Positions 4,030 through 61,092 are shown, counted from the first letter of the stretch. The stretch: 64,000 nucleotides of DNA from Euglena gracilis (GCA_039621445.1 CP154954.1:17948589-18012588); one strand, 5' to 3'. Notes: generated from the letters alone by a model not told the origin. Program-made: numbers and translations.

Positions 4030-6416
4030 GCAAAAGGTCGATGCCAATTCAAGCTCATCAACGTTGGACACGGCCACTTTTGAGCTCTTCGGACAGGAGG
4101 TGTGCTTGGTAACGCGAGACAGGCAATCTGCGCCGCCATACAGCCACTGTATTTGCTTGGCTCGGCAGGGATTCAGTGAGTGTTAGTTTTGCACAGGGGG
4201 GATGGTCCAGACCACCCCCTTCAGGGGGGGTCTGGGACCCCCCCCAAACCAAAAATTTTCCTGTGCCCTTCTTTGGCTTTTTTTCGTTCCGGGGAAGATA
4301 AAATTTCGGCACGGCTGCTTTTTCAAAAAGGTGTGAAAAAACGCAATTTTAGGGGGTTTTTAAGCCCCCAAAATTTTCTGGCGCTTCGAAACAGAAAATC
4401 TTTTTTACAGGAGGAGGGCGGTCCCGACGTCCCCCCTCCCTCTGATTCCCTGCCCTTGGAAGGCCGGCAGATCAAAAGAAAAGTATTTCCACCTTGTTTG
4501 GGTGATTTTGTCCTCCAAAGACGCTAGCTCCCATTTGAACTTTAATGAGCGTGTGGTGGGGTTTGCCGTGGTTGACATTCTGTTCAAGAGGCATCATCTG
4601 GGTTGCCGAACCGCCAACCCACCACATGAAATGGACCAATTCTTCTCTGTCCTGCAGTTCAAAGTGGAGAACAAGCCCCTTGGCAGCCCGGACAACCAGG
4701 GCCATCTATGGGTCCCCCAGAATCCAGTTGGTTTTGCCGAGGGCATTCTTCAGAGCCATTCCTCAAAAAAAATTCATGGAAATCTGCTCAAGGGGTAACT
4801 CTCCTCACGCTGTAGATTTTTCAGGACCTGCCCTTCTCTGTTGGCTGTGTTGGTCTTTCGTCGGATTTTTTCCCCCTTTGTTCCCTCTTCTGAATGGGTG
4901 TGGTGGAACTCTTTGGGGGAACTCTTTCCGACCCAAGAGCGTGTGCTGCCGAATGTGTGTTGTCAGTCATTGTTGTGGCCTTGCCCCTGGCTGGCATGTG
5001 GGGGGCATGGTTGAGTTTTTTTTTTGAGGCAAACCTAATTTTTTTTGGTCCAGAAACCCAGAAAATTTCAGATTTTGTGAGGACGATGGAAAATGGGGCT
5101 CCCGTGCACACAGTCATTTATTCAGTGGCCGACCCTGGGGTCGGCCACTGACTGATTTTCCGAAAAAAAAAGTGAGTGGCTGGTTTTTGGAATAGTGGAA
5201 GTGACCCCCGGGGGGGTTGGTAAAAAATTGTGTGGTCCCGTGCCAACCTGCTGGGGGAGATTTTGTTATTTTTTTTCAAAAGAAACCTGGGCCCCCAACA
5301 ACTTTGGTCATTTGCCTTTTTTGACCAAAACAATATTTTCCTTGTGATTTGTATTGGCAAATGGGACATTGGTGCCTTTTTTTTTACACTCAGGTGACTC
5401 ACAAGCCTCTCTGTTTACTTGCTTACATCGTTGTCGAGGAAAAATTATCGAAGATGGGAAAGTGAACATATTTGGTTTGTCATAGAAGTACTCCTTCCCT
5501 GGCTAACGAAGTTTGTCTCCGTACTAACCTATTTTTCCTCGTCGCACTTTTGAGTCACAATCCTTTTCTTTGGCCCTCTTTGGCACACGGTGGCAACTCT
5601 GCTCCTGTCTTTTGTGTCACTGTGGTCCAATAGTAAAGGAGGGGGTGAGGAATTCCAGCCATGCAACGAGGTCCCTGCTAATATCCCAGTGAGCTCCAAC
5701 CGGAAGGGTATCCCGCTTTTCAAGAAGGTGCCCTCGCAGCCTTCGGAGCTGGACGTCAATGAGGTGTGCCTCCTGCCCAGCTCAGGGCTTCCACATGTCA
5801 TGTTTTCCACAGAAATTGTCCCCAGGGCTAGCTTGACCCCCCCCCCAAACTGTTCCAAACCACAGAATGCTGAGGGTTGCAATTGCTTCTCATTTTGGAA
5901 CAACCTCCCCAGGTTTGGGACCAGACCATTGCTTAACACCTGTCCCACCCCACCCCCTGGGGGGGTGACTGACTGGTTTTTTCAGAGTGACTGACTGGTT
6001 TTTTTTGGCCGTGACCCCCCTCCCCCTGGGGGTGGGGTAGGCCAGAAACCACCCAAAAGTGGCTGAGCGGCCAACTGGCACCGAAGGCGCCGGAGAAAAT
6101 TTTGGCCAAAAATGGCCTTGAAAGGCCAAAACGTGACTGGTTTTCCTGAGTGGCCGACCCCCCCCCCCCGGGGGTAAAGTGACTGGCTGGCTTGGCCGAA
6201 AAAAGTGACTGACTGGTTTTTTCGGAGTGGAAAGTGACCCCCCCGGGGGTCTCTAACCAATGGTATGTTTGGGACCCTGTGCTACACTGCGCTACACATG
6301 GCGCCGGGTCAGGGCAATGGTCCCAGCGGAACCTTTCCCCACCAAATGTCCTCCAGACCGATTTCCATCTGGCGCTCAGTGCAAAGACCACTTGGGAGCG
6401 AAAATGCCATGCGTGA
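4030..6416 (+). CDS. 3' part of an unidentified spliced gene (5' exons unresolved)
   Basis: Phase-consistent exons 4030-4099, 4658-4693, 5683-5763 and 6357-6416 (TGA) give ...QKVDANSSSSTLDTATFELFGQE|FKVENKPLGSPD|IPVSSNRKGIPLFKKVPSQPSELDVNE|TDFHLALSAKTTWERKCHA*. There are two GT-AG introns and one CAG/CTG stem intron. No family recognised. Confidence 0.5.
4694..5682 (+). other. nonconventional (euglenid-type) intron
   Basis: C|AACCAGGGCC...GGTCCCTGCTAAT|A. CAG at +4..+6, CTG at -8..-6, Y|R borders; joins in frame. Confidence 0.65.
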
Positions 6417-9400
6417 GGGTCCTATCCGTACAACTGTTTGGGCTCCACAGCCACCAATTTGTCTGCTCAACGCATATATTCGGTGGTCGGATTGTGTGCG
6501 TGGGCATTGAGAGAGAGCATGGACTCGCTTAACACCTGTGTGACCCCACCCCCCCCAGCGGGGGGGGGGGGTGGATTTTCGAGAATGGGCGGGTGATTGT
6601 GAGATGCACAATGGCAACTTTTTGTCCAAAAAGTGCCCAAAAATGGCACCTTTGGCCGATTTTGGGGGGCAATATTTTTCGGCCCGTCACTTTGTGCCAG
6701 GCAAAAAAAATCAGTCACTGCACAGCAGGAGGGGGTGACAGGCATCATTATTTTTGAAGGCGAAAATTTCAAAAATTTTAAGGGGTTTCAAGGCGTTGTT
6801 TTAAGGTTTTTTCAAGGTTTTTTCAGGCAATTTGAAATTTTAAGAAATTTTAAGGCGTCTATTTTCCAAGGGTCTGTCAAAGAGCCATTCGGGCATCGAA
6901 CGAACGTTGGTCAACGTCGAAAATCAAAAAAGAATTCAAAGTGCATTGGTTTGAGTTTTGGGTGGACAGACAATGATGTTTCAGCGATGACAGAATAATA
7001 AATCATATTTTTTTCTCCCCTGGAGTTCACTTTTTTTTGCCAAGACGCCGCGACTTCTTTTTGCTCAAAATTCGAAAAAAATATCTGGTTCGGACCCACC
7101 CACCCCCCGGAGGGGGGACTTGTTGTTGGTGAATGGCCCCTCTCTGCCCCAAGTTGGCCTCCTGGGCTGTTGAAGGTAACTTCGAAAAATTGTTCCCATT
7201 TAGATCAGATGAGCACTTGCTGAAGTTATAACCGGACATTTTTTTAAGGCGCCTAAAAAACCTTTAAAAACCTTCAGAATTTTGTTCTGCAAATCCCCTT
7301 GGGGGGTGAGGGGCAAGGCACAAAGTTAGCCTTGTTTTTGCACAGGGGGAGGGGGGGGAGTCGGACCCCCTTGGAGCCAAATTGTTTTCTTCCCCAATGC
7401 AAAGCGCTGGGGAAGAAAACAATTTGGCTCCAATATATATATTGTATATATATACAATATATATACACACACATACAGGGTATTGTATACAGGTTATTAT
7501 TGTATATATATATATAGATATTCAGGTTATTTTTTAAAATAGAAATCAAAAAAAATGTGCAAAGCTTCACTTTCCCCAATGCGAAGCGCTGGGGAAGAAA
7601 AAAATTTGGCTCCAAGGGGGTCCCAGACTCCCCCCCTCCCCCTAAATAGAAATCAGAAACTGAAACTGAAGCACGATTTTTTTGAGTTTTTTGAGCCCAA
7701 ATTTTTGAGCCAGGTTTTCCTGAACAGGGGAGGGCCACCTCATTTAGTACCCAGGGGAGGTACCCTGTCCCCATTGTTTTATATCTGTGCCTGTGTGCTC
7801 TTGACTGTTCAAGTGAGCTGCATTGACTCAATTTTCAACTTAGGAGCACCTGGAAGAAATTGCCGCAGATGTGCTGAAGTACCAGCGCTACAGCTTATGT
7901 GGGTTTCGCATTGGGAAAAGGCTTGCCACGGGATTGTTGTGGTCTGGTGTGGTACCCCTGCGCCTCATCTGCTATGTCTTTTTTCCCCGCATGTTGGTTT
8001 ATTTTTATGTATATGTCAGTTGTGTTCACAATGTGTTAGATTTATATTCAACTTCTGTGCACCTGCTAGACACGGCAGGAGGATATTCAAGTTGCAATTT
8101 TCATTTCTCTTGTATCCTCCAGAAATCTGAAAATGCTTTTTTTTTGCATCATATAAATCTTGCATTATAAAAATTTGACAACTGGAGGTTGCAGACATAA
8201 TTTGGGTCCAGATTTTTTTTAAAGGTTGGATCCTGGGGGGTTTGGGTGGGTGGGTTTGCTGGACCCCCGGGACACCCCCAGGACCTTGTTGGTCCCCCGC
8301 CGGAGCAGGGTTTTGGTCATTTTTGGCACGAAGCGCCAAAAAAAAATCTTGACCCCAAAATTGACCTGACCCCCAAAAGGTGGGTCCCCGTCCCCCACAG
8401 CCCCCCCCAGAGGGTGGTACCCCCTGGATGGTGGGGGTCCCCGGTCTTATAAATTCCCAGGTGGACAAATTTTGCATTATTCTTGTTGCTCCATCAACAT
8501 AAGTGCATGCATGCAACTGGTCAAATCACTCGTGCCATTATGCAAGTTTGCACGGCTCTTTCTTTTGGTTAATGGCATTTTTTTTGTTGTTGTTTTTTTG
8601 ACTTTTTTTGGCTTTTTCGAAAAAAATCGTGCAAGGTGTTGCTTTGGCAATGGTTTTAATATTTTTAACATAACAAATCCCACCCCACTCATCAACCCCA
8701 ATTTATAAACCCCACTCAACCCCTCCCTCCCGCGCCGACCAAACAAAGCCCGACTTTTAACCCCCACCCCTGGGAAAGAAGAACAAAAGACGCCGGGGAC
8801 AATTTTTGCCGGCTGCGAAACACCCCAAAAACTGATTTTTGGCAATTTTTATGCAAATAACCATGATCAAAAATGCCATTTTTGACAGATTTGCCAAAGT
8901 CTTCAGGAGCTTCCCAGAATTGTTCATTTTTCTTAACTCCTTTGGGAAAACTTTTCACTATGAAACATAAACCCCCCCTCCCCACTTACAAACCCCCTGG
9001 GGCTCCTTGGATCAGGTTTTGTTGGCCAGCCGAAGGGGGCTAAATAAGTGGGGTAGTTTATAAGTCAAGGAATTGTTGGTCAAAATCCTACCCACCAAAA
9101 TGACCTCCTACTCCCCCCGATTTGGCATTCTTTGGAATTACATGCATGCCAACTCACATGCAACTTTTTTTTGCATTTTTTTGCATTTCTTGCATGCATG
9201 TTTTGAGGTGTCTTGTTGCATAATCCCACTCTCTGCTGATGAAGCTGTGCCCCATGTGTTCAGAACAGGTTACAAGTACCCAGCAGGCTCTCTCATCTCA
9301 CACATCCAGGGAGTTGAAATCCTTACGTTACCAGCCAGAATGTGTGCCCTTTCGAACGTCCTGATCCTTGGAACCAAGGAACCCACCTCTGGTGACCACT

Positions 9401-10262
9401 GGTGACCCAGCAAGGTGGTTTTTATGTGGAAATAGGAATGCGTAACCCCCCCTCTAAATACAACCCCCCCCAGGGTTTCTATTTGGGCGATAAGGCAAGG
9501 CCCCCAGGGAGGTTTTTACACAAACATTTGTGTTTTTCGTTGCATTACATTTATTTTTATAATTCGGCGGCTACATTTGGACTGGGGTGAATCAAATATC
9601 CAACGAAAGGCGTATTTGTTTCCCGATGCAGTTTTGCACTGATTGCTTTAAATTCCACTGTTTAAATAAAATTTGCAGCTGGTTACCATTTTTGTTCGTA
9701 TTCATTGCCTAAAAACTGCCACAAAATGGTAAATTTTCAGGGTTTTCCCCCTCCTGGTACCACCCGCATGGCGTCTGTCCAGGTTCTCATTGGGGAATAG
9801 GGGTTGTATTTGGTCACCATCATGCCCCATGGGGGGTTTCAACGGGGGAGGGGTTACACTAAAGGTGTGTAAATTTGGGAGGTTTTCCTCAGTTTGAAAA
9901 TGCAGACTTCTTCAGCAAGGTTGCCAGAAATCCAAATTTTCCCCTGACGTCAATATTTTTTCTGCTGAGAAACTTCGAATTTCCATTTTTAGTTGAATGC
10001 GCTTGGCGGCAGATTTTTTATTTTATTCACTCAAGGGCTGCCCTGGTTTTCAAGCTCACCCACCTCGAAAATTTCATCCCATTGCTTCAGCAATCCTCTG
10101 TTATTCCAGCCTTAAGCGCCTTCTTCGTAGGTTTTTCGGATAGTTTGTTTGTTGACCCAACTTCCAAGCCTCCGGTGAAACGCTGCCTTCCACCCACACC
10201 GCCTGTTGCGGGGACGCCCCCTCCACTCGCACGCCGTCCTCCGTGCCTTGACCCTCCGCCAG

Positions 10263-11074
10263 GGGTGGTACTGGGCCACGTTGGCCAAAACGTCGCCCTC
10301 CCCTCGTTCGCCGACAACCTCTGCCTCAACTGCATGACCTCCACTTACTTCGTCGCCCTGTTCACCGCATGTGCGTCGGTGCTCATCCTGTCGCCGCCGG
10401 GCTTTCGCTCCCACAGTGCGCCGTGTCCACCATACATTGTGATATTTTTCTGTCAGAAAGCTGTAGAGTTGATTTTTCTCCCCCCGGTGCTTTTATGCCA
10501 TGCAAAAGATGTGCTGGTGCCCATCAAACTATTGGCATATTTGATTTATCCATCATCAGAGCTGCAGAGCATGGAACAATGGAACATGTTGGCAACCCAA
10601 AAGCGAATTTTTTTCGATGTTAAACCCAGAGTCTGTTCAAGGAGTTCAAAGTATCCTAAGCAGATATTTTTTTTAAGTTTCGTGACCCGGCGGGGGGGGG
10701 GTGGGTCCCTGGCCGAGCCCCCCCTTTCCCAGGAATGGGTACCCCCAGAGGTTGGGTTCTGTTCTATTTTCCCCGCTTGCACCGACAGAATTTTTTGGAC
10801 CCCAAAATTGACCCTCCAAATGTCCAAGCCCCCCTCCCCGGGGGAGCCCAGCGGGTGGGTGGGTGCGTCTGGAACCCCCCGGGCCTTAAAAACCTCTGAT
10901 CCTGAGCATTAATAACCCAAAGTCAAAAAATCGTCAGGAGCATAACTGTGAGATTGTGTTCAATGTAAATTTGCAAGATGAAGATGTTTGACCAATTTTC
11001 AAAAAAAAGTATCAAGCAAGGCTCCTCTTTGTTTCCTTTTGTTCCAGTGTATGTGTGAATGTGTGTGTATGGAA

Positions 11075-11113
<39 letters not shown>

Positions 11114-14100
11114 CGTGCGCGTGCGTGCGTGCGCGTGCGTGCGTGCATTTGTGTGTGATGGGACCATGTCTCCTGCCCATCTGCATGTCTTCCTCTGTCG
11201 TATGGGGAAACTCTTTGACTGGGAATAAGGCCCCTGCCATTCTTCCTCGTCTGCTTGATCTCCCGGACTAACACCCCGGTGCAGCACCACTCCCACTCCT
11301 CTCTTGCGCTCGTGACACTGCACATGCCCCCCACCCTTTTTGTGGATGGCTTTATTGGGTCCTGGCTGGTTGCCTGAGCCCATTTCATTTCAGAAATGTC
11401 TTTGACTCACTGTCTCCCTGGATTTTTTTTGTTGCCGCCAATCCTCCTCCTGAAGCTGTTGCTAACAGCCCCCCCCCCCCCCTGGGACTAGTCGAGCCCC
11501 CTCCGGGGGGGGGGGTACTGCAAACCCTGAAGCAGAAGCCTGGAACAGATAGCAGAACTTCTGAAACTCATTCTCAAGACCACAAAGGTCGGTACCCCCA
11601 ATGCCAGGGGCTCTCGGAAACCTCGGGTCTGAACATCACACTCGGTGCTGGAGGTGGAAAGCCTGGATACAGACAAAAGCAGCTGTGGAAGCAAAGGCTT
11701 CCATTTTTGTTCCTTATTGCCGTTTGAAGACAAAAGCTGTCACTCAGGCTGCATTTATGTGATCTGATGCTGAAAGTCTGTTCACACACGAGGGGAACAA
11801 TGGAAGGTGGTGGGGTGTTGGGAACATGTTGCCTTCGTGATATTTTTTCTGAGTTCTGTTCAACAAGCCTGAAAAAAACCGGCAAAAATCAGAGAACCCT
11901 CAACCAGAGAAACGTCAGCTATCTTGTTTGCAGGTGCATTGCATCAGTGGAATTCGTTTCTTCTTTTTGCCCAGATGACTTTCCACATAAAAGCTTCTTT
12001 AAAACCAAGGTGCAAGGCACCGGCCTCAATGGCCCCGGGGAAATACACAATCATTGGAAGATGCGATGAGATGTAACTGTTGCACTGCCACAAAAGAGTT
12101 GAAACGCGATGCTTCCGTTTGCGGCGCTTCACCGACCGCCGCTCCCCTTCCCCTGATAGGGAATCATAGCATGGTCGCCATTCCAGCACTCGCCCCAACC
12201 GAAGGGACACACACCGCAGTGCCAGTGCCACGGACGCGGTGGTGGGCTTCCTGTCGGCGTGCGCGCTGCTCATCCGGGCCTACACCGCCCCCAGCAGCAA
12301 GGTCAGCCCGGTGTTCCACCCAGGGGTTCTCTTCCCTTTATCGAATACCGAACGAAATTCGTCGAATGGCTCTTTCGTGTTGACCGGGGTTGAGTTTCAC
12401 CCAAATCACGTGGGCTGCTTCCTGGCAGGAGGGATGGTGGCCCCCCTCCAAGTTGGGTGCGACCCCCGTGGTGCAGGTGGTTAATCTGAACACTGCGCCT
12501 CACCATGGCTGGATCATTGCCTGTCCAAACGTTGCTGGGGAACTCTATCTCACTCCTTTCATGTGAGCTTTGGTGCTGGAGTCCCCTGCGCCTTGCAAGT
12601 GGGTCATCGTTCCGTGACCTGCTGATTTTCGCTGGGCCAAAACGTGTAAATGGAGTAAGAAATTGTGCAGGCCAGGATTGCATTCAGGGTTTTTTTTTAG
12701 TTGTGGACCCCCGGGGGGGGGGGGAGGGGGGGTAGGGTGGGTGGGTCCGGCCGGACCCCCTCAGAGGGGTGTGCCTTTTTTGGCTGGTGGGTTCCCGGCG
12801 CTGAAGGGGCCGGAGAAAAAAATTTTGACCGGCGCCGAGGCGCCAAATTTTTTTGGTATCTTCTTTGCCGCGCCTCTTGTCACAGCCAAAATGTACAAGT
12901 GCTTTTGTGGTTCCATGTTGAAGAATTCTGGACAGTTACAATTTTATTTTATTATCCATCATTATCCATCATTGTGAATGTCATTAAATTTCTCCTTTAA
13001 GTTGTCATATGATTTGGTTTTTTGTTTTTCTTCGAAGCACAACATTACAGCGGCATACACAATTAAACACAAATGAGCATTGCTTTGGTCTTTGCGACAA
13101 TTCCACAGTAAAACACCAGCATTTTCTATGACAACAATGATAACAAAACATTGTAACTGCCGTCAATTTTTTTTTCGATGATTGGCGTGTTTGCTTTGCC
13201 GCGTTCACGTTTCGCAGTGTCAAAAATACCCCCCCCCCCAAAAGTGGGTCCATCGGGACCCCCCCCCTGGGGGGCCCCCAAGGGGTGGGTGGGTGGGTGG
13301 GGGGTACCCCCGGTCTTAAAAAGAACCCTGATTGCATTTTTTTGCTTTTTGTTCTGCCTATCAGCATCCATACTCGCGGGAATGTGGATGCCAATGAATC
13401 ACGGCAAAGCATCATTCCAGGGTTCCGGAAGTTCTCTGTTCTGAAGTGCAGAGGGACTAATGTGCAATTTTCACTTATACCCCACCCCGAAGGAGCGAAT
13501 CTTTGTCCCTAGGCCATTGCCTCCAGTGTCTCCATCTGCTACAGCATCCGACTCCATACGCTCTTCAAGGAGGAGGTATCGTCTGCTTGCTGCCTTTTTT
13601 TTAAGTCCTTGTCACTGCTTTGGGTTTTCAAGCGAAGCCTGGACAAGAAAATGTCCACACAGAAGAAGCGCACGCATGGGAAACCACCTGGCTCTTTTTC
13701 AACCATTTAGGAAACGTAGGTATCGAAATGAAGGCAATCCGCCCCTGCAAAGTTATTTGGGCAGTGCCCTAACCCATTGACAGATTGATGGATCGATTCA
13801 CCACATATCCTCCTATAACCCTTTTCCTGTTCCTTGTGAAGCGGGCAAGTCATTTGGACGGAACTTTTTCAGCTTTCCCCCTGCAAAGTTATTTGGGCAT
13901 GCAAAACTTCAGGGCACTGCACATTTTGTTCGGGGGTTAACTTGAGCACCATCACCGAAATCTGTTTGGAAGTTTTTGAGAAAAATGAACCTTTTCTGAA
14001 CCAGCAAATGTTTCAAATTACAATCGATTTGTTTCTCCATTTCCGCCCAAAAGATAAAGCTTCCCATCATAAAGAGGCCCCTCCAGAGAGAGTTGGAAGG

Positions 14101-23525: not shown

Positions 23526-23770
23526 CAGGCTTTTTTTTTTAAGCTCAGAAGACCCCCCCCCCCCCCAGGGGGAGGGGGGTGGGTGGGTGGGTCCAGGGCT
23601 GGACCCCCCAAGGGGGGGGATCCTGGGCCGTAGGCCTGGGTCTGGGTTTCGGCGCGAAGTGGCGCAATTTTTTTTTTTGGGAAATGGCCTCAGAGCACCC
23701 GATTTTTGGGGGGTCCCGCACCGGGCTTGGTGGGTGGGGGGACCCCCGGGGTCTTAAAAAGAAAAGCCTG
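23526..23770. mobile_element. hAT-like MITE with 8-bp TSD
   Basis: CAGGCTTTT..TTAAG / CTTAAAAAGAAAAGCCTG; perfect TSD GGTCGAAG. Confidence 0.9.
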
Positions 23771-45833: not shown

Positions 45834-45883
<50 letters not shown>

Positions 45884-48303: not shown

Positions 48304-48707
48304 CTGTTTCCCTGCGCCGCCCCCTCAACGACCCACTGACTGGTGACGGACTGGTCCTGAGGTCGGCCTCCAGTTGCAAGCCGGCAAATGTGAGGCTCAA
48401 ACACAGGACATGCGATGTGTCACGTTGCCACATTGTTAAGCTGCCATTTTGACGCCAAGCTGTGAAAATTTGCCAGATTTGGTGCTCAACAAAAAAAATA
48501 GTCGAAAAAATTAAAATATCAGTTTAATAAAATTTCTGAAATTTTCTTTTGATCAACTTTTGCAGTTTTGCCTGGTGGATTTACCCTCATCAGTTGAATC
48601 TCACCCATGAAGTTTTTTGTGTTCAACGATTGAACAAACCTCTCAGCAGCCTTTCCAGAAACAATCTCTCCGGTACTGCGACAAAACATTTATCCATACA
48701 AGGGCCA

Positions 48708-48746
48708 AATATATACATATATATGTATATATATATATATATATAT

Positions 48747-48793
<47 letters not shown>

Positions 48794-48839
48794 GGATATA
48801 TACATATATATGTATATATATATATATATGTATATGTAT
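48708..48839. repeat. (TA)n microsatellite
   Basis: Directly visible, between NSUN2 and PLD. Confidence 0.95.
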
Positions 48840-50305
48840 TTTGTGCTTTGCACACCATGACAAAACGTGGGTTTTGGGCCTTTTGGGAAATCCCAGGAAG
48901 AATCCTGCAAACCCCACGGGTGGTGGGTGTGTGCGAGGTGCAGAGAAATCTTTTTTTTCGTGATCCGGGGGGGGGGAGGGGGTGGAGGTGGGTGGGTGGG
49001 TCCAGGCCGAGCCCCCCCAGGGAGTGGCGGTTGGGCTGAGTGGGAAGGGTACCCCTCCAGACTCTCGAGGCGGGTTTCCCTCTATTTTCGGCGCAAAGCG
49101 CCGACGATTTTTTTCTTTGGATCCCAAAATTGACCCCACAAAAGTGGGTCCCCCGAGCCCTGTCCGACTCCCCTGACTCAGCGTGTTCCAAATGGTTCAA
49201 TAAAAAGCCCAAGCTTTTTATATATCGGCGCGAGCGATGGAATCACGGTCAAGGAGCTTAACATTCCGCTGGCATGTGGGGCAAATCCGAAAAGAAGTTC
49301 AACCGGGTGAAGGATGTGGTGGACCCCATCCCCCGATGGAGAAACCCGACAACAAAATAGCACAGCGGCCAAGGAGGCAATTTGTGGCCCGGCAGGAAGC
49401 GGGGAGGAGATTACGGACCCTGTTCGGGCCGTATGGAAAGGCTTGGCGAGGGAACCCGGTCACCATTGTCCTGATTGGGTTGCTTCTTCCAGTCCCATGT
49501 CCCCATGATGTGAATGACCCTCAACTCCAGCCGCTGCCATGGCCTCAGGTGCGCCGCCCCAGACGCTGGGGCAATGGAGCAGCCATGAAGCAGCGTGTTT
49601 CATATTGATTCATATTCATATGATTGGGGGGTCATCGTATGTCAATGGGTTTCAAACACAGTCATATGTCATCAGATCTGGCGTTCCCAGCCTGGTTTCT
49701 TTGCGCCACCTTGTCTGTACCCAGGCTTTCCACCTCCGGCACCAGACGTGATGTTCAGACCGGAGGTATCCTAGAACCCTGCCTGCATATGGGTTTGCGA
49801 CCTTTGATTTGTCTTTCACAAATGCTTTGCAAATTCTGCAATCTGTTCATTTTGGTCAAAAGGAGGAACACAGGCATTCAGGCATTTGATTTTTCCAGCT
49901 GGTTTTTTAATGGTCATTTTTGTGCATTTTTGATCTTTTTTATATTTCTGTTTTTGTTCTGCTGGGAAAAAAAATGTAAAATATTACGTATTTTAATTTA
50001 TTACTTCCCCCTGTGACCGAGTGTTTTGTTAAACTTTTGCAGGTTTTTTTCGAATTCTTTGTACAGAAGATTGAATGTTCTTGGATTCAGCATTTTCCAA
50101 AAATTTGAATCATTATTTTCACATTTGTTGTGGTTTTTTTGTGTGATGTATGAGGGTTGATGTTTGATGTTGATGTTCTCCCCTGACGAGGCCTGAAGAA
50201 GGCCTCGGGCTGGAACCCCAAGAAGCCTCTCCAAGCATCTTTCATAATCATTGTTTTAAGCAACGCAGAAAAGGCAGTTGCAGTCTGAAATGAGACCCTT
50301 CGATC

Positions 50306-53300
50306 ATGGAGATCCTCAACGAGCTCACCCCAAAGCTTTTGGTGGGCCGGCAGCCACCGAAGCCCGGATTATTTGCCCCCCCCCCATGCACCAGATTTGC
50401 ATTTTTTGTCTCATTTTTGGGCAGTGCCTGGCTCTGTGCCGTCCAAACTGCAATGCTTCCAGGACCTGAGGCCTTTCCTCAAACCTTCAAGGTTTCCTTG
50501 CCAAATGGGTTGGGTTTTGGGTTGATAAGCGGATGTGGATGACAGACGGGTGGGTGGGTGGGTTTGCAAAGAAAAAGTCGGTAGGTTGGTTAGGTGCTTG
50601 TGCTGCCGGATCGCTCCTCACATCCCTACCCACACATGTGGCGAAAAATCCGGGTGAGGCTGGGGGTGGTAGGATGGGGGGGTACTTAGGAGTTGGGACA
50701 TTCCTAATTAGAGGCGAGGGTGTTGGTTTGGGTTAATGTTTGGTATAGGGTTGTGGTTAGGATTAGGGTCAGGGTTAGGATTAGGGTCGGAGATAGGTGT
50801 AGGATCTTGGAGGGGGGTGGTGGGGGGTTGGGGGGGGGTAGGGGTCCCGGGCTCGTACCAGGTCTCCCCACCCGCATGTCCCACCGCTGGGTTCCCGGAT
50901 CCCCTGACCCCCGCAGGCCCCGGGGGGCATCTTCCTGCACGGGACGCTCCACGTGGTGGTCCATGAGGCCCGGGACCTGCCCAACGTGGACAAGCTGTGC
51001 TTCGCCGGGAAGACGGACGCCTACGTCCGCCTGTTGGTCGACGGCCGGAAAGGTGTGGGAAACAGAAAGGGGCGTTTCGTGCTCCAGAGTTTTCACTGGT
51101 GTCTGTGTGGTGCTGCCACTGTTGCTGCTGATGGGGGTGGGTGCATTCGAACTCCGAGATTGGGGGGTCAGGGGCACGTCAGGGGTACACATTGTCTTCA
51201 AAGAACACTGGATTCACACTGGATTCACATTGTCTTCAAAGAAATGAGAACACCATCTCAAAATCGAAAGTGTATATTACGGTCCTGATTCATCGGTCTG
51301 GGGATTGCACAGCAGCTGCAAACTCCTTATGAGATGGTTTGTTCCGTCAGGTTTCTTCTGTAGTAACCCCGGAATGAGTCTTGGAAGTGTCGCCAAACCG
51401 CAAGAAAAAATGTGTATTCCTTTTGTAGGAGAAGGGACTTCGTAATGTTTGGATGCAGGTTGCAACAGTTTGTGTGCTTGTCACCGCCCCATCCCGGACA
51501 ATAATCCCCCCCCCAATTATACATTTTGTCAGGGAAAGAAAGAAATGTGATCTTGATGTTTCTGCTCAGCCTTCACATCTCAAGCCTCTGCTCTTTGAAA
51601 CGTATTCATCCTGACTCCACACAAAGCACTGAAATGGGGTGACTCTTACCACACGGAAGAACTCAAGGTTGTACTGTTGTACTTCTTCTAGGTCGGATTT
51701 TTTTTTCAGAGAAAAGGATCAGCCTTCACAGAAGAAAGGTGAACATAACACCCAGCATGTGTGTTTGGGAAACTTCCAATGGCTGCCTCATCAACGTAGG
51801 ATGTTGCTGGAAAGATTTGGAGAAGCAAAGGGGTGGTGGACCTGTCACCCCACCTCCAAAAAGCCACCTGGCACTGGCAGTTGTCACCCAGGAAATAAAG
51901 GGTCAGGACAATAGATTCCCTTGGTCACCCCAGGCCCAAACCCACCCACCCAAATTTTTCAAAAACCCGCCCACCCACGACCCCCCGGGGGTGGTACCCA
52001 ATGTTGCACAGCCAGAGATGCGCTTGCGATCATTGGATCGGCCAAAATGAAAGTCAAAATTTGTGGTAATTTTTGGTCCTGTTTTGGTTTGAGAAGCATG
52101 GCCACTGGTCCTAACATGGATTCAATTGACACCTGAGCCCCCCCCCCCCCGGGTGGGTGGGCTTTCGAATATGGTTCATGAAAATGAACAAAAAAAAAGG
52201 AGGGACAGAGCGTCACAGGCAGTTCAAAAACCTGGACCCCAACCCTTGAGTTAAAAAAAACTTTGTGTCTGTGTTTGCACATGCACACACCTGCACAAAA
52301 CACAAAATGCTCCGTTACGCTGCCCAAGCCTCTGAGACTCTGTCCTGGGTCCTGTTGCCCACCACACCAGGGGGGGGGTATGAGTCCAGGCAAGAAAGCT
52401 TGCGGCCAAATGTGAGATACGGTCGGTCTTCCAAGTGAAGAATCGGCTTCAGTTGGAGCTGGAGATGCTAAAGAAGTTCCGTCCCACACAGTTGACCAAA
52501 AGTTTTGGGCGATGACAGGTCGCACTGGGGAGTTCATTTCCCCAGTGTAGGTGTCACCACTTAAGTGGCAAACCGCATAGCATCCTAATTGTATTTATTT
52601 GGGGTTTGGGAGCTGGGTATTTTCGTTTTCACAAAAATTGTCCAAGTGCGTAAACAAAGGAGAAATGTTCTGCAAGTGCAAGTGCAAGTTGCTCCGTCTG
52701 AGAGGCTCCACCCACAGTGTCTCATGTTTTCCAGGCAACACCAAATGATGGCTGCAGAACTGGTGAACGTTGCTAAGGCAGCCAAAGTGCGAAATCTTTC
52801 GACAAAATGGCCCAAAAAGCAGATGGTAAAAAACTGGTTTCAAGGGGGTTTCAGGTTCGCCTGAATTATTATCGCCCAAAACTCCAGAAAAGGTCGAAGA
52901 TGATAAGAATCGGGGGTTTGAGGGTTTTTTTTTGTCTGATACGGGACTCTTCTGCCGACCTCCTTTGGGTCCCCATCCACCCCAGGGGGAGGCCCAGTTT
53001 GTCCTGCACCAAATTGGGTAAACCCGCCCCCCCCCCCCTAATAGAAACGCGGGGTCTGCTGCTGAATTTGAAAGGATACCAACAGAAATTGGACAGGAAA
53101 GGTCCAAATAAAAGCGCACTCCCCGCCGCCAGAGGCAGTCCGCCATAAGCACACCCGCGCTTCTATTGGGGAGGGAAGTTTACTCTTAAAAAAAAAAAAA
53201 ACCAGATTTTAAAACATCCAGTTTTTAACGTAAGATTAAGCCATCCAGATTTTAAAATGGTTTTCCAGTCGGGGTGGTGTCCATGCCTGCTCGGGGGCCC

Positions 53301-56300
53301 TCCGTCCAGGCGCCCGGACAAGCACCATCCACGACGACCTCAACCCCTGCTGGGAGGAGGAGCTGGTGGACTTCCTCGGCCAGGCGGTGGCCGTGGTGGA
53401 GCTGAAGGTGAAGGACGAGGTCTGCGATTGGGACGGAGGCAATGCCCTGCCAGAGATGATTTTTTTTATTATGTTTGGTGACCTGGAGGGGGGGTGTAGG
53501 CCCCGGGGGGTTGGGCTGAGTTGGCCCCCCCCCCTCTCCAAGGGGGTTTCCTCAACTTTGGGCGAAAATTTTTTGACTCCAAATTCGACCAGCACCCCAA
53601 AGTGGGTCCTCTGTGCACCCCCCCCCCCAGAAGATGGGTGTGGATCCCCCTTTCCCCCCAAAAATTCTATGCCCCCCAAACTGATCACATATGGAAAAAA
53701 GTGGAGCCTCTGACTTGAGTGTGGAATAGTTTGGGGGGGGTGAGGTGTGTTTGTGGGGTGTATGAGTGGGAGGGTGTGCGGGGGTATGTGTGGGGTGACA
53801 ATGGGTGGACAGTGGGCTGACAGTGGGATGTGTGCAGGGGTGGGGGGCACAACAAAATATATCTAAAAAAAAATCTTTTTTGAGCATGCCAATTCCAAAA
53901 ATCTGCAATATGTTTGCCAACAATTCAAACGGCTGAAAATTTTGGTGGCAAGGAAAAAATTGTCAAAATGTGGATTTTTTTCGTTAGAATTATTTCTCCG
54001 CAGAGTTCATTGAAACCTTCCTATGATGCTGTTGTGTGATATTGGTGATTACCAACACTCCTCAAACCTGATTCCTCCAGTGACCTCCAAACACCCCCCT
54101 GGGGCCTCTCAAGGATGTTTAAGTCAATTCGATCTTTTTGTTGTTGTTTTTGTCGTGTTTTTTTTTGAGGGTCGACCGTTTGTTCCCTGCACTTGACGGT
54201 TCGCCATGTCGCTGGCATCCCCACCCTCCCAGGACGTGGGACGCCATTCCAAGCCTGTGGGCTCGGTCTGCATCCCCATCGGAGCCATTCTTCAAGGCCA
54301 CATTGCAGACACCTGGCATGCCTCCCCCCACCACTCTCTGACACTGTGTTGACCCTCCAGTGCATGACCATGGTGATGTGATGTGTGCAATGGGTCTTTT
54401 TTTTGTCAATTTGGCAGCTCTCCATTCTTCCTGTTTCCCCAGATTTCACATTGCAAATACAGTTTGGTAAAAACTGAAATCAGCTCTGCGAATGACTGGC
54501 TCTGCCAATGACTTCCTGAATTTTGTGACTTTTGCTTCTGTTTCCAAAAAGTGCTTTTCACTCTGGCCTTGGTTTAAGACCATGACAATTACTCAGTTGC
54601 GACTCTTGCAAATAATACCGACTTTTGTATGCAGTGAGTGAGGTTCGCTTATTTTTGTGTGCCACCTCACATCAGCTCCCTCCCTGCCGTCTCAGGCACC
54701 CCCTCGGCCGTAAGGGCCACCTCCGTATTTCTATTTGGTTTGTGGACGCCTCGCAGGAATCCCTGACCTGTGAAGTGCCATCCCCTTTCCAAGTGTGCGT
54801 GCATGTGCATATGTTTGTGCAAAATGTCAACCATTGTGGCGTTTTCGGTTTTGGATTGTTCCAGGAATTGTTTTTTACCCCCAGGGGAGGGGGGTGGGTG
54901 GGTGGGTCTGCCAGACCCCCTCCCCCGGGGGTGTCCCCAAGGGCCTTGTGGGTCCCCCACCGGAGACGGCGTTTTGGCAATTTTCGGCTTTTTTCAGTGC
55001 GAAGCGCCGCATTTTTTTGAACCCAAACTGACCCCCAAAAAGTGGGCCCCCTGGATCCCCCCGGGTTAGAGGGTACCCCTGGGTTGGAGGAAGGGGCCCC
55101 CGGGTCTTAAAAAAATTCCCTGTCCCCCCCCGGTCAAACATTTTTTCATGGTTGGCAGAAATTCAAAGTTATTTGGGTATCATGGGATTTTGGTTTTCTT
55201 CACTGCCATGTTATCATGAGCCATTTTAGATCACGTGTTCTGTTGCTGTGCAGTTCTGTGGTTTCAGTATGTTTGCAAGTGTGTGTGTATGGTGTATGTG
55301 TGCAATTTAATTGGCATTTATTTTTAATGATCTCCAGCATCAACACGGAATCTGGTGTCTTTGTGTAAACAGGAGACCTCAGGAAACCTCGTCACCCTGT
55401 TCCAAGATGCCCATGTTCCTCTGACCACACGTGTACCTGACGTTCTAATTGCCTCTGGGACATCCAGGGTTGGGGGTTAAGATCAGGCGGATTTCGGTTG
55501 TCTCTTTCTTTCCCTCCAGTGCCTTTTTCAGTGGGTTTCCAACCTGTGAGGACCATCCATTTTTTAAGTAGTCCGTCCCACTGACAGTAATTTTTGGCCG
55601 GCAAAGGAATGGTTTTGTTTATATGCAGTTTTCTTATCTATCATTTTGATATTTTCTGACAATAATTTATGCAGTAACATCCTGCTCTTGCTTCTGCAGT
55701 CCCCCCCCCAAAAACCTGACGGTGGGCAAGCTGAAAAAGATGGTTGCAGTAATCTGGCACCCCACCCAGTTGTTGTTACTTTTTTGGGGGGGGTGTCGTT
55801 TATCATTGTGATGTGCAACACAAATAATACATTTGCAAGGTGATTTGTGGTAAAATGGGTAAGGTCTTCCAACTGCAATGGATGATGATAGTCAAGATGC
55901 CATCTGTCGCGCCTCTTCATTTAACCAGCCCTGCAGACGTACCACAAATACAACTGCTTGTGGGAAACTTTATATCGCACGCTGCAGGAGGTACAGTTCT
56001 TTGTGCCAACGTTGTCCCTATTAGAATGCCCCTTTCAGGAAATTTGTTTCAAACTATTGTGTAACAATGTGAGGAACTGTGTTTTTCAACATCCTGCATT
56101 GCATTCTTCTGATTATTATTCAGAAATCCAAAAGTCCAAACAAATCCAAACAAAAAGCGCCGTCAATTATTTTAATGCTCTTTTTCTGTTTCCATCCAAA
56201 ATTGTGGCAATTCAAAAGTCTGCACACAGGGTTGTGTATGCGTATGCACAGCTGGGCAGGGTCCCGGTCTCCAAGGGCTGCCCACCGCAACAAACTTGCC

Positions 56301-59300
56301 CGACATGCCCTCTCCTCTCTGTCCGCAGCGCTCCTCCCCCCCTCATCTGCTTTGCAGGCCCAGCATTTTATTTATATCGCCGGCTGGTCTGTCTGGGCCA
56401 ACGTCTTGCTTTTGCGAGAGCGTCCCCTTGGGCCGGAAGGTGGGCCACGTGAGGGTTGGAGTTGCATCAGTTCCATGCAGCGTTTCATGGATGGTGTGAC
56501 GGCGATTCGCTCCATTGTCAAACAACGCACAGAAACGTAATTTATCCTCATTCCACTCAGCCAATTTTCGTGCAAAATAGCCTGCCACCTGTGGCTGAAC
56601 CTGTTACGCCAGTTTGCTGGAGTTGCTTACATAAAGCCAATGAACGAACAAACGAACTTATGAATAAATGAATGAATGAACCGAGCCCTGCCAGTGTACA
56701 TACACCCCCGTTCTTGACACGCTGGTCCATGACACAGCCCGTGTGTCAACCGCAGTTCTACTGTATCCAAAATGCCATTTTCTTTATGGTACAGTGTAGC
56801 GTGTCCATGACCCCCCCCCCCAATGTCAACCCTATTTCCCCCGTACTTTGGCATGTGAAGGACGGGGGGATGTCATCAAGCGTCGTTTCTCGCCAATCTC
56901 GAGCGCGGATTGCTTCGCTCGGTCCGTCAGTGCCGGTGTGGTGTCTTCTGCTTCGATGCCCCTGGGCCTCTCTGTCGTACTACGTGCCTTTCGGCACAGG
57001 GTTCATTTCCCTGGGGGAGTTGCTGAAGCAGAAGGCCGCCCAGGGCGTGACGAGCAGGGAGGGGCTGCCGGAGGCTGCTTGGGAATGTCAGAGCCCCCCG
57101 CCCCTTCTCACACTGTGCCCTGTATTAGCACCAATTGGTCGGAATAGCCTGTGAAAAGGGAGTTCGATCAAGGTTTGGCATTGCAAAAATTTACATTACA
57201 AGATTTTAATTATAAATTGAAATTATGGGTGCCCCCATGGTCACCCGAAGATGGGCACTCGTGACTGTTACACATTTTTCTTCATGTGGGGTCCCCCATC
57301 ACCGTTAAACATTTGTTTGGTTCCCTGTGGCTGTTTTGTTTGTTCACTGTTTGGCGGCTGATGTTTGAGAGAAAGCTCTTCTGAGTCCAACCGTCCCACC
57401 CCCTTCCCCCCCCCCCTGGGGGGCGGTGCTGCTGCTCGTGTGGGACGAGCTGCTGTCCATCGACAACCGCCTCCTCAACACGCTGCTGGGGGTGACCCGC
57501 ACCGGGCTGATGAAGACGCACGCCCCCGCAGCTGCTCACGTTGCGCTGGCGGAGGCTGCCTCACACTTGCTTGCCAGGAGGGGGCACTGAGCATCTGCGT
57601 GGCAACGACCAGGAGACCAAGGCGTTTTTCCAAGGCTCCGACGGTGTGTCAAATGAATTGATCCTGAGCTATTTATAAATCACACGGTCGCAATTGGTTC
57701 TGTAGACCCAAATGTGTTTCCAGCCGGCCTTTTCCCAGGTGTTTCTTGTACTGCAAATGCATCGCCCATGTCTGTGGAGGGGGTGTGATGCAGTTTCTGG
57801 GCATAGCAGCCTTCTTCGTCTTGGCAATCAGTTTTGGGCATTGCTCCTGCTTACTCGCGGTCCCACACACTGGGCTCCCCCCCCCCCCCCCCAGTGGTGT
57901 GCCAGCTCGTCATGCGGCGGGCGGGCAATGGCATCAGTTCGCCGGGCAACGTCTCCGCGCTGACTGGGGTATGCCCAGGCCTTGTCAGGGGCGGTGCTGA
58001 TGGGCGTTAGCACATTCAATGCAAGATCCACAAAAGAAATGACCAGAAAAAATGTCCATATTTTGGCAAACAACAGGGCAACTTCGGCTTTGGGGAAAAA
58101 AGGGATTCCTGGCATCCTTTTTCAACCTTTATTTTTTCGACCCATTCGAGCCCCACTTTGGCCCTTGGCCAGCCCCGAGGCCAGTCTGGGGATCGAACGG
58201 GGTCGAAAATTAAAAAAAAAGTTGAAAAGAGTGTCTTTTGATGCTTTTGGTGCGTGGGCGATGGTCCAAGGATGCCAGATATCAAGTTTTTTTCCACTCA
58301 AAGTGCACCTGTTTTTGGTGGACAGATATTGCAGATTCCTTCCATTTTTGGTCGATTTCCGGTCTGGAACTGCCATGCAGGGTGGCGAGGCTGTTATTTG
58401 GATTTATGGCAGGAAACCCGAGGGGAGGCTTCTATTTGGGGTATTTACAACAAAAAAGATGGATACTGAAAGTGGCGGATTTTTTAGTTGGTCCAATATG
58501 AGATGAGGTTGGGAATTCTGGAAGAAAATTAGCTCACACCTGCAAGAAGAACGGTGCCAAGTGAGAACCTTTCAGCAACGAGCCCACTGCCTCGTGGCGG
58601 GGGGGGGGGGGGCTTTTGTGCGGACAGGGGGGTGGTTTTCGGGATTTGGGGGAGTCGCACCATTCGCATAAAATTCCACCTGGGGCTGTTGTGGGGTGCA
58701 AACCAAAAAAAATTGGAACAGAAATTTGAATTTTTCCAAAACATTTCAATTTGGTGAAGAGTGAGGATTTTGAGCCTGTCTTTTTTTGTTTTCTTTCCCC
58801 CAATCCCAGGGTCCTGATAAGCTGAACAGCGTGTTTTGGAGGTTGTTGGTTTTGTGTTCAGTGGCTTTTCAGTCGATAAATGGCAATCTTCGGGCCAATC
58901 CAGTGCGACCCAAACTGACGCAAGCGCCGGCCGCGGGACAACTTGCAAGGATGGATATTGATATTGCGTTTAGGGGGGTCCCGATAAATCTGGATAGATT
59001 AAACCCCCGATATCCTCGATAAAAATTGATAAAACCGATATGATCATTTTCCCCCCGACATCCTCATTTTTGTGATATGGAGAATCCCAAATCGCCCCAA
59101 AAACAACAAAAAAGTTCATTGCCCCCCCCCCCCAATACAGCTGATATTTCATGGTATTTTTTCGGGACCCAATAAGTTCAAGATCGGCAATCAGGCCGAT
59201 ATGGGCCGATATCCAATATCCATCCCTGCAACCTGTCTTCACCGCAGGCGCTCAGCAAGGTGGCGACGGAGGCGGTCTTCACGCACCACCAGAAGACCGT

Positions 59301-61092
59301 CGTGTGCGACGCCCCAGCCGCGGCCTACGGCCGCCGGCGGGTGGTGGCGTTCGTCGGGGGCCTGGACGTCACCAGCGGCCGCTTCGACACCCCGGAGCAC
59401 CCACTGTTCGCCACGCTGGCATCCTGGCACTCCGTGGACTTCTACCAGGTTGCAAGCATCCTGGTAGCAGCAGCGGTTGGTGTGACCGGGGAAAAATGCT
59501 TCTTTGCGCCACGACAACTGTGGGACATTTTTTTTTGTAACTGGCTGTGCCAAGTTGAACCTTTTGTTGCATCCCATGCAACGTTGAAGATGCGCGCCGT
59601 GACCACGACGACATTCCATTCATATTGTTTGCACTAAGCCGCAGCTAAAAAAGGTCTGTGTCACATTCACCGAGGCAAAAACAATACTTGCTTGCTTATT
59701 TACTGACCTGCACTGTGCCGGCACTATTTATTTTTTTTGCAACACCTTTGCCACGGCGCAGTAGCGACAAATACTTGGGCGGCCCACGTGGCACTTAAGG
59801 ATTTTGGCCAAACCAGGCGCACGTGTGCGCGAACTTGTGACACGTCCGTCTCAGTTGGTTTGCGGTGTTTGAAAACCCGGCCAGCGGCGCGGACGTGTTA
59901 CCCAAGCAGGGCTGTAGTGCCTTGGGGTTCGAACCAGGCTTCTGCTTAAGGGTTCGCAGTGCCCGCCGGGGGGGGGGGCTGGACTGAAGCTAGTCCAAAT
60001 TTGGCCAGTGGAAATCCCAGTGGGTCCGCTGGCAGGGCTGGCTAGAGGAATTTTTTTTCAGTGACCAGCACGAAGCACCAAAATTTTTTGGAACCCCAAA
60101 ACTTGCCAAAAATGCTCATTTTTTTGCCATTTTTTTTTAGTTTTTTTTTTGGAACAGAACCACCAAAAAAACACGTTGGAAACCACATTTCCGTCTCAGC
60201 GCACAGCGTCGGAGGAGTTTTTTTTCCCCCCAGTTGGGGGACCCCCCAATCCCCTGCAGTGCCCGCAAAGGGGGGGATGTCCCCACGTGCGCAGGTGTGT
60301 GCGATTGTGCCCTGCAATGCATGTATGTCGTTTCGGGCGGTGGTTTCAAGCACCGCAAGTCCGTGGACCTCGAACCTCTCCACGGCTGTACGGGAATCCC
60401 CGCAACCCTGTGGGTGGTGGGTGGGGGGGTCCCCCCCATCCTGGTGGTGGGGGGGGGGGTCCGACCCCCCGCCAGGCCTTCCCGTATTTTCGGGGGCCCC
60501 GATTTTTATGTCAACGTTTTCCTTCGGCGCCGAAGGTAATTTTCTTTGAGCGGGTGCCATGGTGGGTGGGTGGGGGGGTCGACCCACCCTCACCAGGCCT
60601 TCCGGCACAGGCCTGCCCTGCCCTGTCGGTCTCTCTTTGCCGCCTCCTTCGTGATGCCCTCACAGCCTCACAGGAGTTCAAATGTGTTTTCTTTTGGCGC
60701 TGTCCCCCCCTGTCCCCGTGTGCAGGGGTATGGGGAGTACGAGGCGACGTATGGGCCCCGCCAGCCGTGGCACGCCCGCACCATTGCCGGCTGTGCCAAG
60801 AGTGACTTACCTGCCGAAGGACCCAACCATGTTTCCTCGTTGCCAAACGGCCAAAAATGCAGAAGCTGGCCCGAAGTGCTTTGAGTGGTTGAAGGGACCG
60901 ACCCTCTGCCATTTGTTTCACACTTCAATTTTCTTTTTTTCAGAAATCGAAACGTCAAAATACAAGACTGTTTTTTTCCAGACATAGAAAGCGAAGGGTC
61001 TGCAATGGCCTGGCCCTGACGTCCATGCTATGGTGGATGGCCCGGCAGCCCTGGACGTGCTGAGCAACTTCGAGCAGCGGTGGCGGAAGCAG
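50306..61092 (+). CDS. C2-domain phospholipase D (plant PLD alpha/beta/delta-like), spliced, 3'-incomplete in this window
   Basis: Exons 50306-50341 (tentative start), 50917-51052 (FLHGTLHVVVHEARDLPNVD), 53310-53419, 54233-54315, 54696-54792, 55373-55461 (VTLFQDAHVP), 55939-55990, 56358-56439 (HFIYIAGWSV), 57000-57051, 57425-57521 (VLLLVWD), 57607-57643, 57895-57968, 59248-59448 (first HKD motif HQKTVVCD, AFVGGLD), 60726-60773 (PRQPWH) and 61018-61092 (DVLSNFEQRWRKQ). A possible next exon is 61848-61888. The second HKD motif is not seen in the window. Confidence 0.92.
55462..55938 (+). other. nonconventional intron
   Basis: C|ATCCAGGGTTGGGGGTTAA...TTAACCAGCCCTGCAGAC|G. CAG/CTG consensus; yields ASGTYHKYNCLWE. 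Confidence 0.8.
57052..57424 (+). other. nonconventional intron
   Basis: C|GAGCAGGGAGGGG...CCCCCCCTGGGGGGC|G; restores QGVTVLLLVWD. Confidence 0.8.
57522..57606 (+). other. short (85 nt) nonconventional intron
   Basis: C|GCCCCCGCAGCTGCTCA...TGAGCATCTGCGTGGCAAC|G. 13 of 15 positions pair; restores MKTHDQET. Confidence 0.88.
58946..59228. mobile_element. MITE with CCGATA repeats
   Basis: CAAGGATGGATATTG / CAATATCCATCCCTG TIR; flanks CAACTTG / CAACCTG. Confidence 0.7.
60774..61017 (+). other. nonconventional intron
   Basis: C|GCCCGCACCATTGC...GCAATGGCCTGGCCCT|G; restores the conserved PWHDVH. Confidence 0.88.

Follow-up and report, generated by a model that had tools for sequence, protein, structure and literature searches.

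Three genes in a window of Euglena gracilis DNA

We analyzed a window of 64,000 nt (GCA_039621445.1 CP154954.1:17948589-18012588; positions are counted from its first letter) in which three genes on the + strand carry two kinds of intron side by side: 34 spliceosomal introns and, in all likelihood, 17 introns of the euglenid nonconventional class, which lack GT-AG borders and have ends that can pair with each other. We put the probability of this reading at about 93%. A preliminary description, made by reading the raw sequence, had pointed to about 13 such introns distributed over four genes and to a euglenid source. To judge from its sequence, the window is nuclear DNA of Euglena gracilis, as two E. 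gracilis transcript proteins, EG_transcript_4336 (P0011) and EG_transcript_7539 (P0131), are near-identical to it; names of the form ‘EG_transcript_N’ are those of the E. gracilis transcriptome paper (PMC6366073).

The window has a G+C content of about 50%, no long open frames and a eukaryotic character. Its coding pieces have a G+C content at third codon positions (GC3) of 0.86, and a scan based on GC3 yields short exons on the + strand only. Since the exons are short, a Pfam search of 416 + strand frames of at least 50 aa gave only sub-threshold fragments (RsmB-F, C2 and PLDc), located at 33.2–36.7 kb (RsmB/NOP2-type methyltransferase), 50.9 kb (C2) and 59.2 kb (active-site motif of phospholipase D, PLD). 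Genes were found via high GC3 and three protein searches, each with a single exon as query. No Pfam family was detected in the 150 scanned of 154 − strand frames of at least 93 aa (the four left out lie at the window start and in a microsatellite at about 63 kb, two at each place), and there is no sign of − strand genes in the window.

The first gene, gene A (4031..22888), encodes a multi-pass membrane protein and was delineated by exact protein-to-genome matches and junction enumeration. It corresponds to EG_transcript_7539, a conserved protein of 480 aa without a Pfam family, which shows 96% identity to the query exon in the protein search; 15 mapped exons cover residues 19–480 and are identical to the window throughout. 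The preliminary description had split this locus into two genes, so that its total of four is reduced to three. P0132, a relative with 63% identity to P0131, is colinear with it over the whole length, which argues against a chimeric transcript. The first coding exon (residues 1–18) was not found upstream, at positions 1–4030 of the window. The gene contains 14 introns, namely 6 GT-AG, 1 GC-AG and 7 nonconventional ones.

The second gene (26612..48300) encodes an NSUN2/Trm4-like tRNA (cytosine-C5) methyltransferase and was identified by exact mapping and by the Pfam Methyltr_RsmB-F fragments. It corresponds to EG_transcript_4336 (737 aa), which is 100% identical to the query exon over the aligned part (91%), and comprises 25 exons separated by 17 GT-AG, 1 GC-AG and 6 nonconventional introns (24 in total). 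About 6 of the 737 residues differ between transcript and window (26612–26716, 29444–29446 and about 31525); by our reading of the alignment, four of these differences cluster in exon 1. Mixed bases are seen in RNA reads as well, such as T>C at 48258 in 6 of 17 reads of one RNA run (X21). Together, the residue differences and the mixed bases suggest allelic or strain variation.

The third gene (50917..61092) encodes a PLD with a C2 domain and the first HKD motif. Its model was built from RNA joints and a paralogue; it has 14 exons with an open frame of 411 aa and is expressed and spliced in public RNA-seq data. In place of an exact transcript, the protein search found only a paralogue, P0001 (EG_transcript_9790), with 70% identity over the queried 68-aa exon and 53% identity to the 411-aa model (E = 3e-155). 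The 13 introns comprise 8 GT-AG, 1 GC-AG and 4 nonconventional ones. The frame starts from an AG acceptor near 50916 without an in-frame ATG in 50781–50916, and neither a 5′ coding exon nor the C-terminal half (exons beyond 61092) was found in the window; an RNA contig carrying the PLD mRNA reaches about 790 nt past the modelled exons. Gene A and the PLD gene thus both extend beyond what the window allowed to model.

Seventeen introns without a GT-AG or GC-AG solution

For gene A and the methyltransferase gene we listed all combinations of donor and acceptor that yield the transcript-derived protein, and for the PLD gene every mRNA-identical slide of each junction. Short direct repeats are present at most intron borders, which can therefore slide over 1–13 positions. 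In this way 51 introns were mapped (labelled A, N and P for gene A, the methyltransferase and the PLD gene, respectively): 31 are GT-AG, 3 are GC-AG and 17 have no GT-AG or GC-AG solution at all. The existence of the non-GT-AG introns was thus confirmed, whereas the earlier count of about 13 has to be raised to 17. They are interleaved with conventional introns in every one of the three genes, as had been proposed. Their lengths range from 85 to 1810 nt, exactly as described before, with a median of 763 nt, and the limits given for the set coincide with the first position of A2 (4694) and the last of P13 (61017).

Seven of these introns interrupt gene A: A2 (989 nt, 4694..5682; the start slides within 4692–4695), A5 (843 nt, 10396..11238; 10393–10397), A6 (930 nt, 11307..12236; 11305–11309), A7 (1193 nt, 12318..13510), A9 (the longest with 1810 nt, 14699..16508; 11 protein-compatible slides), A12 (973 nt, 20350..21322; 20344–20350) and A14 (358 nt, 22443..22800). 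The methyltransferase gene contains N5 (550 nt, 31570..32119; start within 31569–31571), N6 (1200 nt, 32242..33441; slides 32240..42 to 33439..41), N9 (425 nt, 33931..34355), for which AA..GC is the single possible border, N10 (763 nt, 34460..35222; slides 34460/61 to 35222/23), N22 (993 nt, 46229..47221; borders GT..CC or TT..CA) and N23 (666 nt, 47313..47978). The PLD gene carries P5 (477 nt, 55462..55938; start within 55459–55462), P8 (373 nt, 57052..57424; slides 57051..53 to 57423..25), P9 (the shortest with 85 nt, 57522..57606; slides 57520..23 to 57604..07) and P13 (244 nt, 60774..61017; slides 60774/75 to 61017/18). All are on the + strand.

Precise removal follows for the 13 introns of gene A and the methyltransferase gene from exact mapping of the transcript-derived proteins, for P5 from RNA reads, for P8 and P9 from paralogue alignment combined with contig depth, and for P13 from paralogue alignment. 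The alignment of the PLD model with P0001 is gap-free at the junctions GVT|V, TH|D and PWH|D. Since P8, P9 and P13 have lengths of a multiple of 3 plus 1, retention of any one of them would shift the frame. The preliminary description had noticed five conserved motifs that are interrupted in the DNA and become continuous only once segments lacking GT-AG are taken out. This holds for all five: no GT-AG solution exists for a 10-residue motif interrupted by N6, for VNH|DA (N10), GVT|VLLLVWD (P8), TH|DQET (P9) and PWH|DVH (P13). The N6 and N10 junctions were taken from the exact mapping of P0011, the other three from the PLD model and its paralogue. A motif scan also returned PWHD at 36957 and HDVH matches on the − strand; these are chance matches and not the motif in question.

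The remaining 34 introns show what is known of conventional E. gracilis introns: GT-AG or GC-AG borders, a GTGTG-type donor and weak pairing of the ends, none of which describes the 17. GTGTG is the published donor consensus of conventional introns in this species (PMC11170887); by our own count of the intron table 17 of the 31 GT-AG introns start with it, and a C-rich pyrimidine tract typically accompanies it. The three GC-AG introns, all with G at +5, are A13 (873 nt, 21496..22368) and N16 (1900 nt, 39667..41566), both found by junction enumeration, and P3 (380 nt, 54316..54695), which is seen as RNA joint 54314>54695 with 4 ambiguous nt. As listed, P3 has the borders GG..CA; of the five equivalent positions of this junction, one gives GC-AG. 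Because P3 also has G at +5 and a C-rich tract and its ends pair weakly, it is most likely a conventional GC-AG intron, and we excluded it from the nonconventional set.

The case of P3 illustrates how the 17 could in principle be spliceosomal introns with misplaced borders, given that borders slide over as many as 13 positions. Likewise, GT-AG pairs around tiny exons could be concealed in them: micro-exons of 1–2 nt between AG and GT would arise by chance in an intron about 1 kb long, and no micro-exon search was made. We consider either version very improbable. The enumeration covered all protein-compatible borders and gave no GT-AG or GC-AG pair for any of the 17. The flanking exons already encode all residues, and the RNA reads at P5 join both exons with no letters in between. 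Furthermore, end pairing and the CAG/CTG code described below set the 17, as a class, apart from the GT-AG introns.

RNA and DNA reads in the region 43001–63000

The preliminary description had suggested alignment of RNA-seq reads as a check. Reads were mapped on 43001–63000; we used two runs of raw RNA reads (X21 and X24), contigs of a run that we guess to be RNA (X15) and DNA contigs (X1). Among the 15 joints listed out of 648, 11 are seen in RNA runs, and 9 of these 11 are exon–exon joins. No contig of the DNA run X1 shows any of the nine. The other two are not splice junctions: one is the opposite-strand joint 45120/45478, the other a 340-nt skip that also occurs in X1.

One of the nine joins, 55458>55936, removes P5. 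It skips 477 nt with 3 ambiguous letters and joins the exons directly; none of its four slides (GA-CA, AC-AG, CA-GA and AT-AC) is GT-AG or GC-AG. The joint is supported by 14 X21 reads, 4 X24 reads and one X15 contig, with 0 contigs in X1; here a non-GT-AG junction is seen directly. The eight other exon joints lie exactly at the positions predicted by the models and have GT-AG borders, or GC-AG borders once slid (methyltransferase introns 19 and 21; PLD introns P2, P3, P4, P7, P10 and P11).

The fourth slide of P5, 55462–55938, begins with AT and ends with AC, which recalls the AT-AC introns of the U12-type minor spliceosome. We give this explanation hardly any credence for the set: only one of the 17 introns has an AT-AC slide, the 5′ end of P5 (ATCCAGGG) is unlike the U12 donor consensus, and this very slide carries the full nonconventional code.

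Depth provides indirect information on two further introns. The PLD mRNA is represented by an X15 contig of 2096 nt with a depth of 239, and the depth per bin expected from this contig matches the observed values in repeat-poor bins. In the bin 57008–57674 the observed X15 depth is 66.0, close to the 63.8 that removal of both P8 and P9 would give; retention of P9 would give 94.2, and retention of P8 197.4. The bins at P13 are confounded by repeats, and for this reason paralogue homology is what speaks for the removal of P13.

If the missing segments were lost at the DNA level, or if they were insertions of the assembly or of one allele, no unusual RNA splicing would be required. Several introns do hold high-copy repeats, with DNA word depths of up to about 1.2 million (for comparison, eight long X1 contigs listed have depths of about 104–131). 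On the other hand, X1 contigs run unbroken through 53146–54907, 54936–58206 and 60580–62204, so that P3, P5, P8, P9 and P13 are present in DNA, although X1 may be the assembly's own sample. In addition, the nine exon–exon joins of the RNA runs have no counterpart in any X1 contig. We regard removal or insertion at the DNA level as having next to no chance. What the analysis as a whole shows is exact joining of exons at non-GT-AG borders in mature mRNA, with introns present in DNA and the joined form absent from DNA.

Pairing of the intron ends and the splicing code

The ends of the nonconventional introns had been described as complementary. We found a mean energy of −21.4 kcal/mol for the duplex of the 25-nt ends of the 17 introns, as compared with −10.1 kcal/mol for the 31 GT-AG introns (Mann-Whitney p = 1e-6). 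Relative to shuffled ends the mean z is −1.93 for the nonconventional and +0.47 for the GT-AG introns, and z lies below −2 in 8 of 17 and 0 of 31 cases, respectively. As a class, the ends of the nonconventional introns are thus complementary beyond chance. When only the terminal 10 nt were folded, as in Gao et al., zero energy was obtained for none of the 17 and for 10 of the 31 GT-AG introns; in the genome-wide data of that study the shares are about 3% of nonconventional and about 35% of GT-AG introns (PMC11170887).

The published consensus of nonconventional E. gracilis introns has CCAGG at +3..+7 and CCTG at −9..−6 (PMC11170887). Genome-editing knock-ins in E. gracilis led to the code 5′-N3CDG...CH′GN5-6|R, with R in the exon, together with pairing that extends inward (PMC12501133); it is present in 61.2% of the nonconventional introns of E. 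agilis and so does not define the whole class (PMC12501133). We applied the strict form of this code and found it in 8 of the 17 introns: A2 (with CAG/CTG, N5 and A), A9, A14, N6, N9, N23, P5 and P8 (with a 6-nt 3′ spacer). N6 has a perfect terminal helix of 10 bp. None of the 31 GT-AG and none of the 3 GC-AG introns contains the code in any compatible slide, and random pairs of the same length and slide number yield on average 0.07 matches per 17 and never more than 2 in 2000 trials. The assignment to the euglenid nonconventional class made in the preliminary description agrees with these results, i.e. with the lack of canonical borders, the pairing ends, the CAG/CTG pair and the code of Nomura et al. 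2025 in 8 of 17 introns. A helix of five consecutive pairs leaving 3 nt at the 5′ and 5–6 nt at the 3′ border was found in 10 of the 17, in 3 of 31 GT-AG and in 0 of 3 GC-AG introns, with a random expectation of 1.26 per 17.

Among the introns without the strict code, three come close to it. A7 has CAG at +4..+6 and TTG instead of CTG at −8..−6, in a 9-bp helix that includes 3 G-U pairs and keeps the 3/5 register. In N10, CAG and CTG are both present within a 13-bp helix, and the code is missed due to a 3′ spacer of 4 nt; N22 carries CGG/CCG with a 7-nt spacer. A5 (7 bp), A12 (9 bp) and N22 (7 bp) form their helices in the canonical 3/5 register, made of other bases. A6 lacks the code as well and has an end-duplex z of −2.72.

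Three of the 17 introns have a slide with 5′ GT or 3′ AG, namely N22 (GT..CC), N10 (CC..AG) and P5 (AC..AG), and might represent ‘intermediate’ or hybrid introns on which the spliceosome uses one canonical end. Such introns have been discussed in the literature (PMC4770533), and hybrid motifs account for 0.8% of the introns in E. agilis (PMC12501133). However, N22, N10 and P5 have strong terminal helices of 7, 13 and 9 bp, all at or at most 1 nt from the 3/5 register (3/4 or 2/5 in the case of N10). Gao et al. found the nonconventional consensus also in introns that have GT or AG at an end (PMC11170887), and Nomura et al. suggest that a noncanonical machinery processes hybrids (PMC12501133). 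We therefore find it improbable that these three are spliceosomal hybrids and keep them among the nonconventional introns.

In three other introns without the strict code the helix is displaced inward equally on both sides, as compared with the canonical 3/5 register: the unpaired ends measure 7 and 9 nt in N5 and P13 (the latter with a 7-bp helix) and 5 and 7 nt in P9, whose CAG/CTG pair is shifted 4 nt inward on both sides. As the displacement is equal, the 2-nt stagger between the two cuts would be kept. Such helices could reflect a machinery that measures from helix geometry instead of recognizing CAG/CTG at a set distance, or they could mark a second class of nonconventional intron with another register, but we consider this doubtful. 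In knock-in experiments, a 5′ spacer one nt longer or shorter abolished splicing (PMC12501133). With three cases and freely sliding borders, chance is the more likely origin of the pattern. The introns without the code fall within the 39% of nonconventional introns that PMC12501133 leaves unexplained.

Several observations weigh against assigning all 17 introns to the nonconventional class. Nine of them do not contain the strict code, and the end duplexes of N23 (z = +0.23) and P8 (z = +1.07) are no better than those of shuffled ends. The whole 85-nt P9 does not fold better than its shuffles either (z = −0.25), its terminal helix being visible only in the centroid structure. The register test separates the classes poorly when fewer pairs are demanded: with 4 pairs it is passed by 13 of 17 nonconventional and 8 of 31 GT-AG introns, with 3 pairs by 16 of 17 and 16 of 31. 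Direct RNA reads cover 1 of the 17 junctions (P5) among the 15 joints listed out of 648, and the joints of P8, P9, P13, N22 and N23 lie outside these 15. Thirteen junctions come from transcript-derived proteins with the border not resolved to the nucleotide; for P8 and P9 there are paralogue homology and an indirect depth calculation, and for P13 homology alone. EG_transcript_4336 may derive from another allele or strain, and X1, if it is indeed the sample of the assembly, is not independent support.

Relation to known intron systems

The closest known system is that of the euglenid nonconventional introns themselves (Milanowski 2014/2016, Guminska 2018, Gao 2024, Nomura 2025). They occur in the same organism, lack GT/GC-AG borders and have pairing ends, and they resemble the 17 in CAG at +4..+6 with CTG at −8..−6, in the interleaving with conventional introns and in length; we see no categorical difference. 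The proportions differ. The nonconventional share is 57% in E. gracilis (16,151 of 28,337 introns; PMC11170887) and 71.8% of 649,158 junctions in E. agilis (PMC12501133), as compared with 17 of 51 (33%) here. The code is carried by 47% of the nonconventional introns here versus 61.2% in E. agilis (PMC12501133). Diplonemids, a sister lineage within the Euglenozoa and different organisms, also have abundant non-GT-AG introns (PMC12621601). The conventional E. gracilis introns, with GT/GC-AG borders, GTGTG donor and C-rich tract, match the other 34 introns of the window; the 17 have neither these borders nor the donor motif and do have paired ends.

The bulge-helix-bulge introns of tRNA genes and archaea have borders defined by a helix, are removed by an endonuclease and a ligase and can be released as circles. 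Their resemblance to the nonconventional introns would be one of outline, in that the borders may be set by an RNA helix rather than by pairing with small nuclear RNA. The conformation of nonconventional introns has been described as unlike that of tRNA or self-splicing introns (PMC6221363).

The Discussion of PMC12501133 proposes that nonconventional introns stem from elements resembling miniature inverted-repeat transposable elements (MITEs). Like MITE-like or transposon-derived introns, the introns have inverted repeats at their termini and are bordered by short direct repeats. An all-against-all blastn comparison of the 51 introns revealed no family-level similarity among the 17. Their only matches are dispersed repeats, which are present in GT-AG introns too, and the direct repeats at their borders are not longer than those of GT-AG introns (mean 1.9 versus 2.6 nt). 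A dispersed repeat of about 330 nt with 71–73% identity occurs, at approximate positions, in A9 (14849–15169), N20 (44809–45110) and P12 (59932–60254). It is thus found in one nonconventional and two GT-AG introns, and repeat content does not track intron class.

Repeats and other elements in the window

Further repeats were noticed in conventional introns and outside the genes. The GT-AG intron A11 contains a near-palindromic tandem repeat of 19 nt in 23 copies (18892–19333) and a 162-nt tandem repeat in 3.8 copies (19352–19966). The sole Rfam match in the window, MIR474 (19073–19180, − strand, 52.2 bits), sits inside the 19-nt array and is probably spurious. Within the GT-AG intron N20, positions 45002–45668 harbor a very high-copy element with a DNA word depth of about 1.2 million and an RNA depth of about 78/69, as compared with 1–2 in the neighboring bins. 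The opposite-strand joint 45120/45478 in this element is covered by more than 400 X21 reads and shows poly-G and poly-C loose ends; the element has the look of a transcribed hairpin or inverted repeat.

The GT-AG intron P10 has a C-run at its 3′ end (57875–57894), with 428 X21 reads that have poly-C loose ends. These reads raise the RNA depth of the bin 57675–58341 to about 16/13 and probably represent cross-mapping from a G/C-run repeat. Near the end of the window a (CACCCA)n array (63029–63180) and the complement (TGTGGG)n (63770–63969) flank a frame with a sub-threshold match to the DDE_3 transposase family (63377–63667, + strand, E = 1.4e-5, 25.5 bits versus a cut-off of 28.6 bits). The region 63029–63969 is possibly a decayed Tc1/mariner-like element.

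Mechanism and significance

In the published mechanism, which is the best-supported account of the 17 introns, the ends of the intron pair with each other, typically CAG at +4..+6 with CTG at −8..−6, and the helix extends inward. About 3 unpaired nt would remain at the 5′ border and 5–6 at the 3′ border, bringing the exon ends together, and a machinery that is possibly not the spliceosome would cut both borders and then join the exons. Further steps can be suggested from the literature: removal after the conventional introns (PMC6221363), release as circular RNA as seen for a nonconventional intron of tubA (cited in PMC12501133), and independence of the spliceosome. No joint of a circular form was among the 15 joints listed for 43001–63000. 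The preliminary description had called the removal machinery unknown, which still agrees with the Discussion of PMC12501133.

The feature as such is already known: genome-wide catalogues appeared in 2024 and 2025, and the cis code was dissected genetically in 2025. The published lists may already include these very introns. The value of the window as a dense test set had been overstated, since genome-wide sets exist (PMC11170887, PMC12501133), and the window does not ease testing of which enzymes remove nonconventional introns. Nevertheless, a tool-free reading of raw sequence correctly recognized both the intron class and the source organism. For the biology of euglenids, the analysis adds three annotated loci to a class whose counted members number in the tens of thousands for E. 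gracilis and in the hundreds of thousands for E. agilis. A small lead is provided by expressed nonconventional introns that break the published code, such as P9, P13 and N5.

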